Source: a virus (Duplodnaviria; Caudoviricetes). Taken from it: 64,000 nt of DNA. The notes below the pieces were generated by a model. That model searched no databases and was not told where the DNA came from. It worked only from the letters and a program-made list of their open reading frames with translations. The position numbers and the translations under genes were made by a program. Below are positions 569 to 63,401 of this stretch, in pieces; the stretch's first letter is position 1, and each line of letters opens with the position of its first letter. Location of the stretch: IMG/VR virus record IMGVR_UViG_3300036987_000310, positions 128,001-192,000 of that record. One strand, written 5' to 3'.

Positions 569-835
569 GTGAACACAATCAGGAAAAAGTCGGACTCGTA
601 TATAGAGGCACAGAGCGGCTTTCCTTCTGAAGAAAGAGGGACCCTAGTCACATGCCCTGTGTGTGGTGGAACTGGACAGAAAGAACATAACTCCCCGAAC
701 GGAGAGTATAAAATTCTGTTATGCAGATGGTGCAGCGGACACGGAAGCGTGACCAAAGAAGTGTATGTGGCTTTCATTCGGTGGCTGAGGATTCTCAGCC
801 ACAATCGGGCGTCAGGGAACTGCGAAAGGAAATAG
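569..835 (+). CDS. Small protein with DnaJ-type CxxCxGxG zinc finger
   Basis: CPVCGGTG and CRWCSGHG. Confidence 0.6.
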   Translation: MNTIRKKSDSYIEAQSGFPSEERGTLVTCPVCGGTGQKEHNSPNGEYKILLCRWCSGHGSVTKEVYVAFIRWLRILSHNRASGNCERK

Positions 836-1190
836 CCTCCTGCAGCCATTTTCTGAGCGTGCCTTTGTGTTCTTGGTGTCTTATTTTGACAACTTTCATT
901 TGGCCTTCGGTCATTTCCTCTATGTATGATGCGTGATGCCGAACCGCGATCGGAAGCTTTTCGTGATCGTTGGTCATCACCATGAGATTGTCACATTCGT
1001 ATGCAAAGACAGACTTCGGGCACAAGATGTGTAGCGCCTCGATGAGAATTTCAACTTCTTCATCACGAGCTTCGCGCAGTTTTTGAACAACTAGCGTTGC
1101 GATTTTGTGCCTGCCGCCAAACTCGCTCCCCCAATCTTCCATCACGTCCATGATCTTTAGCTTGTTCAAAAATTCGCGATTGACTATCAT
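795..1190 (-). CDS. Hypothetical protein
   Basis: 131-aa ORF; ATGA overlap with upstream gene. Confidence 0.55.
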   Translation of the reverse strand: MIVNREFLNKLKIMDVMEDWGSEFGGRHKIATLVVQKLREARDEEVEILIEALHILCPKSVFAYECDNLMVMTNDHEKLPIAVRHHASYIEEMTEGQMKVVKIRHQEHKGTLRKWLQEAISFRSSLTPDCG

Positions 1191-1408: not shown

Positions 1409-1917
1409 TCGGCCCCTATGTAAAAAGCCCACAGTTCCGGCACGTCATTTGTTAACATAACCGGTGACGACAGTGGGAGAGACTTTGGCCGAAACGGTTT
1501 CCGCTTGAGTTTCATGCCAGCTTCAAACGGAGTTCTCCCGGCTTTCCGGGAGTTGCACGGGTAACAGCTTGTAACGATGTTTTCCCATTCTGTCTTGCCT
1601 CCGCACCTCTTGGGAACCACGTGGTCATAGTTCAATTCGCGCATCGACAGCTTTCTGCCGCAGTATTGGCACGTAAACTTGTCTCGCGTCAACACATTGA
1701 TGCGACTAAATTTTACGCCACGCTTGTTCACACAAACATTCTTGACTAGTCTGGCGACCGCCGGCATTTTGATGGATGTTGACGGGGACCTGATGACTTC
1801 ATCATACTCTTCGAGCACTTCTATTTTCTGATTGAAGAGTAGAACGATGGTTGTCTGCCAAGGAACGATTCTATGAGGTTGCATCCAAGGAGTTAGCAAG
1901 AGAGTTTGGGTCGACAT
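1405..1917 (-). CDS. HNH endonuclease (McrA-like)
   Basis: RDKFTCQYCG...DHVVP..GG..WENIVTSCYPCNSRK; GGAG 6 nt before ATG 1917. Confidence 0.9.
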   Translation of the reverse strand: MSTQTLLLTPWMQPHRIVPWQTTIVLLFNQKIEVLEEYDEVIRSPSTSIKMPAVARLVKNVCVNKRGVKFSRINVLTRDKFTCQYCGRKLSMRELNYDHVVPKRCGGKTEWENIVTSCYPCNSRKAGRTPFEAGMKLKRKPFRPKSLPLSSPVMLTNDVPELWAFYIGAE

Positions 1918-1984
1918 CGTCATCTCCGTTTCTTCTTTTTCATGGCTGTCTCCCATGTTCAGCTGTTTGTTGTTGGAACTTTGC

Positions 1985-2266
1985 ATGGACATCCGGAAAA
2001 TCGCGTCAAGAGTTGCAGAAGGGTGGCAAGACAAGCTTCACGGGGGTCTTGCCGACGACAACATCCCTGAAAACTTCAACCCTATACAACTTGTCAACGG
2101 ACTTGTCGTAGAGCTTGAACACGTCAACAAAGAAGCTCACGAAATGCTGAAAAATGCTCCAGACGACATTCATAAAGCATTAGAAATCGCCATGGACCAT
2201 CTTACTGAAGACGCGGAGTACTACACCAAGCTCGCGAAAATGGAGGGGGAAGAGTTTGTAGGCTAG
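1985..2266 (+). CDS. DUF5661-like phage protein with N-terminal IAxRVA motif
   Basis: VELEH...IAMDHLTEDAEYYTKLAKME recalled as DUF5661-like; starts MDIRKIASRVA. Confidence 0.65.
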   Translation: MDIRKIASRVAEGWQDKLHGGLADDNIPENFNPIQLVNGLVVELEHVNKEAHEMLKNAPDDIHKALEIAMDHLTEDAEYYTKLAKMEGEEFVG

Positions 2267-2538
2267 GACTCGTCTTTGACGCTTCCGTACCACCCGGCTT
2301 CCATTACTCGTCTTGCCGTTTCTGCCACTGCTTTTTGATCGTCCGCCCGGCCTTTGGCTAAAGACGTCAAAATTTTGCGCAGCAACGCGTCCCCTCTTTT
2401 GCGGGCTTTCTTTTCATCGGACGCAGACAGAGTTTCAAACTCGGCAGCGATGTCTTTTGCCTTCAAAAAAGGTATTTTGTTTGCGACAACAACAGTGTCC
2501 CCATTCGCAATAGCCCTAGCAAACTTGTCGATCTCCAA
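2263..2538 (-). CDS. Hypothetical protein
   Basis: 91-aa ORF, TTG start, convergent with upstream + gene. Confidence 0.5.
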   Translation of the reverse strand: MEIDKFARAIANGDTVVVANKIPFLKAKDIAAEFETLSASDEKKARKRGDALLRKILTSLAKGRADDQKAVAETARRVMEAGWYGSVKDES

Positions 2539-5072: not shown

Positions 5073-5273
5073 TTATGCCCTGGCGTTTTCTTCACATGAA
5101 AGCTTCACGAGAATCTGTTCAGTTTTGAGTGGACATCGAAGCGGCAACAGATGACTGCGCGCACGCTCTCCGCTTATCGAACATTCGTTCGGAATGCCGC
5201 TTTCATTCCGAACGAATGGGCACGATGGACATGAATCTATTGCGATGATTCTGATGTTCTTCTCGGTGTTCAT
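5073..5273 (-). CDS. Small Cys-rich protein
   Basis: Start moved to ATG 5273 (ATGA overlap); SCPSCPF...C...CPL. Confidence 0.55.
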   Translation of the reverse strand: MNTEKNIRIIAIDSCPSCPFVRNESGIPNECSISGERARSHLLPLRCPLKTEQILVKLSCEENARA

Positions 5274-5512
5274 GACTCCATGACTCCCATCAGAATGCCA
5301 GTCTCGCATCCATTTTCCGGATGCTTCATGTGATTTCGGCTTCCCGGTTCCAAAATGATTAGAGCTTCGCACTCTGGACACGTTATGTAATCTCTCGGGG
5401 CCCTTCTCGGCTGAGACATCGCTTTTGCCAGCTCAGCCCTTCCTTGCGGAGTCGATAAGTATTTGGAGATGATCGGGTCTAACTGCGGCGTCAGTTCCAT
5501 CGAATCCTCCAT
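5270..5512 (-). CDS. Small protein with capsid N-terminus-like segment, Zn knuckle and tag (GVMES)
   Basis: IISKYLSTPQGRAELAKAMSQPRRAPRDY, CPEC...H...C, ends ILMGVMES. Confidence 0.7.
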   Translation of the reverse strand: MEDSMELTPQLDPIISKYLSTPQGRAELAKAMSQPRRAPRDYITCPECEALIILEPGSRNHMKHPENGCETGILMGVMES

Positions 5513-5538
5513 ACTTAGTTTGCATTGCTTTTTCGTCG

Positions 5539-5612
5539 TGGGCCGAGTCGGGTTCGAACCGACAACATCTCCGTTATGAGCGGAGGGCTCTTACCGATTG
5601 AGCTACCGGCCC
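5539..5612 (-). tRNA. tRNA with CAT anticodon (Ile2-like or elongator Met)
   Basis: Loop CTCATAA; C4-G69/C5-G68 pairs resemble TilS substrate tRNA-Ile2. Confidence 0.85.
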
Positions 5613-54745: not shown

Positions 54746-55864
54746 ATGAGCTCAATCGCTGAACGCGTCGCCGCCATGTATTGGGACCCAACGAACGAAA
54801 CGTCTCCTGAAATTGGTCCCGAAAACGAATTTGTGGTGGGACAAGGATGGCCGGAAACGGACGACCCGGAAGAGAGAAAAAAACAAATTGAGTATGACGA
54901 AAGAACGCTTCGCGGGCTCAAGATGGTAGACGACGAAATGGCTGAGTGGGGGCTCCCGCCGGACAAGCTTGCAACGGAGCTCCGCACGATCGCCGACGCC
55001 ATAGATAGATCTGAGCAGCCGAGCTTGTCTCTCGTGGCCAGCGACATTTCCGAGCTTGTTGGTTTCTTGCGAACTTCTGGCGCCAAATCGATGGCCAGAA
55101 ACATTCGAAACGAAGTGTGGTCGCAAATTTTAGCGCTTTTTCCGAGCGGAACCTTCGACCTTTCCGTTGGCCAAGGGTCTGGCCTCTACGACACCAACGA
55201 AGAGGGAAAGGGGTGGTCGGACGGGTTTGTGTCGTTCGCAGCCAAGCCAACAATCTGGTCCACCAACAACATCATAGGCGGCATCCTGTTTCGATTTCGG
55301 TACTCTCCAGAGAGCATAATTCCAAAACCGGGGACCCCTGAGCACGAAAAATGGGAGAAAGAGAACGTTCTTGGCATCAACCAAAACGTTGTTGAAGTTG
55401 GTGAGCTGTCTGGAGGCTATTACAACAAGAGATCGGGAGGGTCTGTCGACGCGTTTGTCGGAAAGATTGACTCAGAAACTGAGGCTCCCGCCGAGGTCGC
55501 GGCAACTCCAAAGGAAATCTTCTTTGGCGAGGCGATCTTTGAGATCGTCCAAAACGAGACCATTGTTGACTGGGACTGGAGCGACCCTGCAACAACAAGA
55601 TCCAGGATACAAAACGTCATTGACGACATCATGAGAAGCCCTCCCATCGGAGGAACCGGAAAGCCTTCTGGCAAGAAGAACCCGTATGAAAGCATAATGA
55701 AGTTCATGAACCATTTGAGAAGGCAAAGACGGAATGTGTTCTATAAAGACGAAGCCAGCCTTATTGCACAGTCCATTGGGTCAGTTCTGAACACAGTGGT
55801 TCAAACACTGACCAACAACAACTTCCAGTACGACCCGAAGAACGCGCCGTTCCCTGTTCCCTGA
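54746..55864 (+). CDS. Acidic protein with N-terminal IAxRVA motif and internal LRxIAxxIDxSxxPS motif
   Basis: MSSIAERVAA; LATELRTIADAIDRSEQPSLSLVASDI. Confidence 0.75.
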   Translation: MSSIAERVAAMYWDPTNETSPEIGPENEFVVGQGWPETDDPEERKKQIEYDERTLRGLKMVDDEMAEWGLPPDKLATELRTIADAIDRSEQPSLSLVASDISELVGFLRTSGAKSMARNIRNEVWSQILALFPSGTFDLSVGQGSGLYDTNEEGKGWSDGFVSFAAKPTIWSTNNIIGGILFRFRYSPESIIPKPGTPEHEKWEKENVLGINQNVVEVGELSGGYYNKRSGGSVDAFVGKIDSETEAPAEVAATPKEIFFGEAIFEIVQNETIVDWDWSDPATTRSRIQNVIDDIMRSPPIGGTGKPSGKKNPYESIMKFMNHLRRQRRNVFYKDEASLIAQSIGSVLNTVVQTLTNNNFQYDPKNAPFPVP

Positions 55865-62783: not shown

Positions 62784-63401
62784 TTAGCATAACCGCACGA
62801 GCCTTTCCGGCTCCGGCACCCAGTCGGGAGCAAGGTCATGGTCATCTTCGTCCTCACCCACAGGCAAGGCAAAACCTACCGGAATGGCTCGCTTCAGACG
62901 GATCTCGGTATTCCAGATCCGCCCCTGGATGCCTTGCCGAAGCATCACTTCCCGCGTCTCCATGTCGATGAGGTTGCTGCCATATATGCACACGTCGGCC
63001 CAATCCGTGGCATTAAGCCATACCCGTTTGACGATGGTGTCCCAGTCCTCGACCACGGTACCGAACGCCTTGGTGAGCACGTCCGGCGTCACAATGGAAC
63101 GAGGTTCCTTGGCTGCGGCTTGTGCTCGCCGATAGGCGTCTTCCAGGGCCTCAATGACTGTGTCCCGCAGCGGCGTGCTTGGGGCGTTCTGCTCGATGAG
63201 CCTCGCCAAGGCGAGGAAGCCCTCCTGCAAAGCCTGAAGCGCCGTAACCTGGCGGTCCTCAAGGGGCCTCGGCGGCCCGAACACATGGTCAATCCTGCTC
63301 ATGGTTCTTTCCTCGTGCCATTGGCTTAGTCGGATTTGATTTGCTTCAAGATACGCTCGACGGTGGGGCGCGTTGACTGTTTCTATATCGAGAACGGTCA
63401 C
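62784..63401 (-). CDS. Putative Acb2/Tad1-like helical hairpin fused to a major-capsid-like segment (start possibly ATG 63302)
   Basis: IDHVF.P..P...Q...L...FL.LA..I...AP.T..R...IEALEDAYRRAQAAA; then VWLNATDWAD...DMET...GIQGRIW...R.IPVG. Confidence 0.55.
   Translation of the reverse strand: MTVLDIETVNAPHRRAYLEANQIRLSQWHEERTMSRIDHVFGPPRPLEDRQVTALQALQEGFLALARLIEQNAPSTPLRDTVIEALEDAYRRAQAAAKEPRSIVTPDVLTKAFGTVVEDWDTIVKRVWLNATDWADVCIYGSNLIDMETREVMLRQGIQGRIWNTEIRLKRAIPVGFALPVGEDEDDHDLAPDWVPEPERLVRLC

Follow-up and report, generated by a model that had tools for sequence, protein, structure and literature searches.

The window analyzed here is a stretch of 64,000 nucleotides (bases 128001-192000) from the IMG/VR virus record IMGVR_UViG_3300036987_000310 (Duplodnaviria; Caudoviricetes), a phage genome that is complete at 376,674 bp and carries direct terminal repeats. 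Its minus strand carries at positions 5270-5512 a small gene coding for a mini-protein that is built of three parts: a copy of the N-terminal arm (N-arm) from the same phage's major capsid protein (MCP), a putative zinc knuckle, and a short C-terminal tag that recurs on many proteins of the phage. We hold this anatomy, as well as the homology to the MCP N-arm, with high confidence. The longest open reading frame (ORF) runs from ATG 5512 to the stop codon TGA at 5270-5272 and encodes 80 residues, with the complete translation MEDSMELTPQLDPIISKYLSTPQGRAELAKAMSQPRRAPRDYITCPECEALIILEPGSRNHMKHPENGCETGILMGVMES; an earlier note on this DNA had quoted the same ORF and translation. A GGAGGA box (5505-5510) is located 4 nt upstream of a second ATG (5500), at which the public gene call P0001 (76 residues) also begins; therefore, ATG 5500 is probably the true start, which gives a mini-protein of 76 residues. 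In the 80-residue numbering, the N-arm copy covers residues 7-44 (5381-5494, minus strand) with a core of residues 15-42 (5387-5470), and residues 14-42 read IISKYLSTPQGRAELAKAMSQPRRAPRDY. They are followed by the motif C45-P-E-C48, the residues H61/H64 and C69, and a C-terminus ending in GVMES, all of which agree with the knuckle (CPEC...H...C) and the tag that the earlier note had described.

Homology and anatomy of the mini-protein

The true MCP of the phage, a protein of 295 residues, is encoded outside the window at genome positions 328566-329453 (L001:1465-2352). It matches PHROG 2522, 'major head protein', with an E-value of 8.5e-46 and the solved gp27 MCP of phage G (PDB 6wkk) with an E-value of 2e-58, and is by sequence a phage G gp27-type HK97 protein. 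The earlier note had suspected the MCP at position 62784 of the window, which proved wrong, since that gene encodes an accessory protein of 205 residues carrying a copy of MCP residues 166-240. The motif that the note gave for the N-termini of large-phage MCPs is present in the real MCP at residues 17-44, which read VDKYIGTSAGRKRLASSMIQPLRERRDY. Capsids of the HK97 fold use the N-arm as a connector in trans, which extends onto the subunits next to it. This is the role of the N-arm in the HK97 fold in general; an AlphaFold2 (AF2) model of the MCP of this clade from a 12-row alignment reached a pLDDT of 34 and was unusable.

Comparison of the mini-protein with the N-terminus of this cognate MCP revealed the similarity that the earlier note had proposed, and this structural part of its proposal therefore stood. 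Residues 15-42 of the mini-protein align without gaps to residues 17-44 of the MCP, with 14/28 identities and at matching distances from the N-terminus (BLASTP). Among all 3403 ORFs of the genome, none apart from the mini-protein itself matches it better than the MCP (BLASTP E 4e-4; phmmer E 5e-4), and a hidden Markov model (HMM) of the MCP family detects the mini-protein at E 1.6e-4, in a match that spans MCP positions 15-48 only. The Smith-Waterman score of the pair is 72, compared to 26.8 +/- 4.3 for shuffled sequences, and none of 5000 shuffles reached it. Alignment of the mini-protein family against the MCP family by hhalign gave a probability of 98.1% and an E-value of 1e-13 over 39 columns, pairing mini-protein positions 4-42 with MCP positions 9-47. 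In addition, a tblastn search of 2.3 Gb of phage DNA with the mini-protein hit only MCP N-termini (LR745208.1, E 0.02; phage G gp27, E 0.5), bar one match at E 9. Pfam and PHROG scans of the mini-protein assigned no family and gave no capsid-protein match. By these profile and pairwise comparisons, the first ~45 residues are shown to have arisen as a duplicate, since diverged, of the N-arm in the MCP of this phage.

The residues retained in the mini-protein, G-R-x-x-L-A-x-x-M-x-x-P-x-R-x-x-x-D-Y, are those that are invariant from phage G to the MCPs of the present clade. The arm shares 50-57% identity with the clade MCPs and 52% with that of phage G, and is thus homologous in sequence to the N-arm of gp27-type MCPs. 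It differs in that only the arm is kept, whereas the E-loop, the spine helix and the A- and P-domains are replaced by the zinc knuckle and the tag. Because the complete fold of ~280-300 residues is absent, the mini-protein is not itself an MCP; it is an arm-only MCP paralogue that is incapable of forming a capsid subunit.

The putative zinc knuckle of the CCHC type (5306-5380, minus strand) has C45, C48, H64 (or H61) and C69 as candidate ligands. C45 and C48 are invariant in 22/22 members of the mini-protein family, and the later ligand pair is H or C depending on the subfamily; at the sequence level, a four-ligand knuckle follows the arm. No Pfam zinc-ribbon model matched the mini-protein, and for a sister protein the match to PF14369 stayed below the cut-off. 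In the AF2 model of the mini-protein (pLDDT 82.7), two helices lie over the arm (residues 7-16 and 18-28 in P0001 numbering); then come an extended PxRxxxDY stretch, a β-hairpin at the knuckle's CxxC motif, and a C-terminal helix (residues 66-75) that corresponds to the tag. A Foldseek search of this model against the PDB returned nothing below E 1, with weak matches to zinc-ribbon ribosomal proteins at E > 1. The predicted complex of the mini-protein family with the full-length MCP family scored 0.01, which we counted neither for nor against binding.

The C-terminal tag (ETGILMGVMES-COOH; 5273-5305, minus strand) is a predicted helical tail peptide whose pattern is matched by 67 of the ORFs in the genome; about one in five proteins of the phage carries it. 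In the tagged genes, both TCN and AGC codons stand for its Ser, and each of the three stop codons is used, so that the tag is conserved as a peptide and not as a nucleotide sequence. The same variation in tag and stop codons, with both Ser codon families in use, led us to reject the tag as a nucleotide-level signal such as a GGAG...ATGA coupling site. The mini-protein shares the helical [VI]-[MH]-[ED]-[ST]-COOH peptide with the other tagged proteins; it belongs to a subset that differs from the rest by a knuckle before the tag and a variable N-terminal part recognisably derived from the MCP.

The mini-protein family and its genomic setting

An exhaustive HMMER search of 1.84 billion representative proteins, using the mini-protein and one close homologue as the query, gave 43 matches. 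These include ~20 representative clusters of 53-124 residues that have the N-arm motif, a CxxC with two more Cys/His residues, and a terminal tag ending in VMES, IHES, VIES, IMES, IMSA or VMDT. Four long eukaryotic proteins among the matches were rejected as repeat artefacts, and truncated MCP gene calls were set aside from the family count. The present mini-protein has the features that define the family, namely the arm motif, the CxxC with two further Cys/His ligands, the terminal [VI]-[MH]-x-x-COOH and a length within 53-124 residues. In an alignment of 22 sequences, at least 90% keep L28, A29, M32, P35 and Y42 (80-residue numbering). Over their whole length, the members share only 31-45% identity with the query, except for one close orthologue; the close orthologues P0002 and P0165 (61-66% identity) retain all three parts and end in VMET. 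A single-sequence, word-indexed protein search found only one homologue of the mini-protein, and none came from scanning IMG/VR for the pattern of the two-sequence alignment. Altogether, the capsid-fragment mini-proteins form an undescribed family, of which the N-arm copy is the commonest type.

The position of one family member suggests how such a gene could arise. In the relative L005, the MCP gene (1549-2439, plus strand; 92% identical to the present MCP) is followed 337 nt downstream by the N-arm mini-gene P0161 (2777-2992, plus strand), an arrangement that suggests an origin by tandem duplication of a part of the MCP gene at its 5' end. The mini-gene might be nothing more than evolutionary debris, i.e. 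a partial duplicate fused by chance to a common knuckle and tag cassette and devoid of function. A tandem array of decayed copies in another relative (G001, described below) fits this explanation, as does the fact that many MCP fragments in public data are merely truncated gene calls. Yet ~20 clusters share the three-part build and, at only 31-45% overall identity, nevertheless keep the MCP-invariant residues and both CxxC cysteines; reading frame, motif and tag are all intact in the orthologues of 61-66% identity, and the AF2 model of the mini-protein is confident. This conservation across the family largely refutes the debris explanation, which we regard as very improbable.

The gene is located ~195 kb from the head module, inside an accessory region of tRNA and HNH genes; 32 minus-strand tRNA genes lie within the first 26 kb of the window, with small ORFs interspersed. 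A tRNA-Met gene (5538-5612) sits 25 nt upstream of the mini-gene on the same strand, and no promoter-like site was found in a promoter scan of the interval between the two. The mini-gene is probably co-transcribed with the tRNA array. Promoter and terminator scans were uninformative. Downstream, the ATG of a gene for a Cys-rich protein of 66 residues (CPSCP...C...C; 5073-5273, minus strand) overlaps the stop codon of the mini-gene (ATGA), an arrangement of translational coupling. This gene ends the minus-strand unit, and the plus-strand gene beyond it is convergent. The 66-residue protein has no family match and no homologue in four complete relatives; a gene of 67 residues with a 4-nt overlap also follows the mini-gene in the contigs of its two closest orthologues. 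As HNH genes lie nearby, carry-over of MCP exon fragments by homing endonucleases was considered and rejected: with ~50% identity in protein, the copies have diverged far beyond what DNA homology arms would allow, and each is joined in frame to a conserved module.

The head module itself, in addition to the MCP gene, comprises genes for a portal, a protease (genome 324723-326420), an acidic protein of 405 residues (genome 326463-327680), which is a candidate scaffold, and a protein of 221 residues. Two genes downstream of the MCP gene, a protein of 772 residues (genome 331379-333697, plus strand) carries a vWA-type MIDAS motif (VIDCSGSMS). Among more than 100 environmental relatives, MCP identity is 85-99% while the neighbouring genes differ, which is unusually high conservation for a phage capsid protein; roughly 1700 contigs bear the MCP.

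The distance of the mini-gene from the structural genes bears on the idea that the mini-protein is a virion cargo or minor capsid component, whose arm copy would plug into the MCP lattice, for instance at places near the portal vertex that lack an arm, with the tag serving as a packaging signal. Large phages do package many small proteins; against such a role stand this distance and the abundance of the tag, since about a fifth of the proteome would be much for cargo. We therefore consider packaging improbable.

Capsid-protein fragments in the genome and its relatives

A search of the genome ORFs with the MCP profile revealed five small ORFs that carry pieces of the MCP, four of them with knuckle and tag. 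Apart from the N-arm mini-gene, one ORF of 81 residues (genome 313692-313937, plus strand) copies MCP residues 114-164 in the spine-helix region, is Cys-rich and ends in IMDS. An ORF of 136 residues (genome 125965-126375, minus strand) copies MCP residues 168-226, followed by a knuckle and the ending EIHDV, and an ORF of 76 residues (genome 198219-198449, minus strand) copies residues 170-198, followed by a knuckle and the ending VMED. The 205-residue accessory protein mentioned above (window 62784-63401, minus strand) has a copy of A-domain residues 166-240 of the MCP at its residues 104-179, with neither knuckle nor tag; it matches the MCP HMM at E 8.6e-13, phrog_2522 weakly and phrog_1454 at E 6e-6. 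Of 13 ORFs in the genome that have a knuckle directly before the tag, four carry MCP pieces, and the remaining nine have no significant similarity to any large protein of the genome. Copying of any other large phage protein in such fragments was not found in the genome. The link between the tag system and capsid biology that the earlier note had put forward is thus supported, and extends further than it proposed, with many more cases in relatives.

In 16 related records, the MCP profile finds a full MCP in each, plus fragment ORFs. The fragments correspond to MCP residues 7-67, 11-65, 14-55, 25-62, 31-71, 44-85, 64-101, 81-120, 86-141, 183-251, 184-238 and 227-292, and many have a knuckle and tag. 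Taken together, these alignments show the fragments in relatives to tile MCP residues 7-292, which is nearly the whole protein. At least one N-terminal fragment ORF is present in 5/5 complete genomes, this one included, although its locus and extent differ. The clade profile found no MCP fragments in phage G and LR745208.1.

Two relatives have clustered copies. In a 436-kb relative (L115 = G003:268453-271686), four knuckle-and-tag mini-proteins are encoded side by side on the minus strand (ORFs 856-1113, 1251-1652, 1498-1749 and 2776-2991), which copy MCP residues 36-59, MCP residues 242-258, a diverged N-arm and an N-arm. A 362-kb relative (G001, L104:1279-2081, plus strand) has a tandem array of three paralogues of a CPxCG...HPxNxC knuckle subfamily, whose N-arm part is increasingly degenerate and whose tags have degenerated as well (VSET, VMMP, THES). 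Within the present window, an ORF of 131 residues (795-1190, minus strand) contains a weak N-arm-like stretch, GGRHKIATLVVQKLREARDE, that aligns with MCP residues 22-44 (HMM E 0.25) and may be a decayed further copy or a chance similarity.

Fragments also occur in another setting. The cultivated Tunturiibacter phage Tunturi_5 (PP885688.1, ~122.4 kb) has an ORF (L151:1483-1776, minus strand) with a copy of MCP residues 88-117. In this ORF and in P0157 and P0163, a twin-arginine-like leader (e.g. TRRQFFRFPLVALAFALAP) precedes the MCP fragment, which is either residues 88-117 or the N-arm, and replaces the knuckle and tag that would otherwise follow. These leader-borne fragments represent a second architecture for capsid fragments, present in a cultivated phage. 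A different shared peptide module (P.D.LA..LR.IA.KID.S.QPS..LVA), unmatched in Pfam and PHROG, forms the start or the end of at least six proteins that have nothing else in common; its carriers are the protein at window 54746-55864 (plus strand, residues 68-124) and small ORFs at genome positions 126844, 152440, 172632, 268961 and 195539.

The diversity and quick turnover of the fragments would suit interference with co-infecting relatives, in which MCP fragments made early poison the assembly of a competitor in a dominant-negative manner and are then removed via the tag before the phage's own late phase. The extreme conservation of the MCP in otherwise mosaic genomes is also in line with such a target. 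The fragments keep the residues of the phage's own MCP, however, so that the phage itself would be poisoned equally, and the removal step would presuppose a degron role of the tag. We give little credence to this explanation.

A different possibility is that the mini-protein regulates or chaperones the assembly of the phage's own capsid, its arm copy docking on the scaffold or on free MCP, in the groove that receives the arm. Capped subunits would be kept from premature or aberrant polymerisation into a very large shell, and the tag would recruit a reader, such as an AAA+ remodeller, to release or remove the mini-protein. The nature of the N-arm as an inter-subunit connector speaks for this role, and the mini-protein keeps exactly the residues that are invariant in MCPs. 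The gene in L005 that lies just behind the MCP gene and the presence of an N-terminal fragment ORF in every complete relative point in the same direction. Moreover, the other fragments copy the E-loop, the spine helix, the A-domain and the P-domain, i.e. all lattice interfaces. By contrast, the mini-gene is not syntenic with the head module and lies in the accessory region, the copies lack orthology, vary in number and have in part decayed, an unusual pattern for core morphogenesis factors, and phage G and LR745208.1 have the same MCP type and lack fragments by the clade profile. We regard an assembly role as possible, though on balance unlikely.

A precedent for such re-use of an assembly motif is CpmB of the satellite SaPI1, which competes with the 80alpha scaffolding protein by mimicking the C-terminal helix of the scaffold that binds the MCP N-arm. 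Both are small proteins that re-use an interaction motif of capsid assembly, CpmB to compete at one binding site and the mini-protein putatively so. They differ in that CpmB mimics the scaffold, whereas here the MCP arm is copied, and in that the mini-gene belongs to a phage and not to a satellite; the two share no sequence relation. Likewise, general Pfam and PHROG scans of the mini-protein gave no sequence relation to scaffolding or size-redirecting proteins (80alpha scaffolding protein, CpmB, P4 Sid).

Possible decoy function of the fragments

Since the N-arm connects neighbouring subunits in trans, a free copy of it should compete for the partners of the arm. A monovalent copy that retains the contact residues would occupy the site that normally receives the MCP arm, and the tag would tie the resulting complex of arm and partner to a common tag reader. 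On the reading that we tentatively favour, the capsid-fragment proteins would serve to bait some protein that recognises surfaces of the MCP, most likely an immune sensor of the host that the capsid protein triggers. They could block the sensor as non-assembling monomers, or pass it on to the tag reader. Such a decoy of a host capsid sensor is favoured because the fragment genes are small, fast-evolving, non-orthologous between relatives and located in accessory islands. Its premise is that defined MCP surfaces are read by host immunity: immunity of the CapRel, Thoeris and CBASS types is often triggered by MCPs, and oligomerisation has been noted as a common denominator (PMC13728456).

The parallel with the known systems has limits. 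Gol/Lit, CapRel-SJ46, Thoeris and CBASS resemble the proposed decoy in that short or defined MCP surfaces are read by host immunity, but in each of them the epitope is part of the MCP itself and is not separately encoded. In the Gol/Lit case, the Gol region of T4 gp23 is recognised by the Lit protease. We know of no separately encoded MCP fragment described as an anti-defence protein, and a literature search found no paper on separately encoded MCP fragments.

Several points weigh against a decoy. The Gol peptide of T4 gp23 alone activates Lit, and a bait that bears the epitope could likewise activate the sensor rather than block it. The N-arm mini-gene directly downstream of the MCP gene in L005 fits a role in assembly equally well, and an N-terminal fragment in every complete relative could mean a core morphogenetic function. 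The 205-residue protein at 62784-63401 gave no match to Pfam PF24729 (Acb2/Tad1), and thus lends no support to the decoy reading; no defence system is linked to the capsid-fragment genes. The decoy reading and the reading as a regulator of the phage's own assembly remain close.

A broader proposal would embrace both kinds of target. The fragments might form a bait-and-handle system, in which pieces of the MCP are presented on a knuckle stalk, capture readers of the capsid surface, be it immune proteins or assembly intermediates, and are delivered with them to the tag reader. This would amount to targeted neutralisation by the phage, founded on mimicry of itself. We put it forward as a doubtful scheme.

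Few signals alert bacterial immunity as commonly as capsid proteins do, and in shells of the HK97 type the N-arm serves as a key connector. Free-standing, tagged copies of capsid segments, encoded by a conserved family of phage genes, have not been described previously. If the copies are decoys, they would represent a new counter-defence principle, the self-mimicry of a trigger; if they act on assembly, they would represent a new way for giant capsids to control polymerisation. Under either reading, the abundant C-terminal tag of these phages gains its first recognisable class of cargo, and the copies of the N-arm, spine helix and A-domain provide concrete baits for finding both the target and the tag reader.
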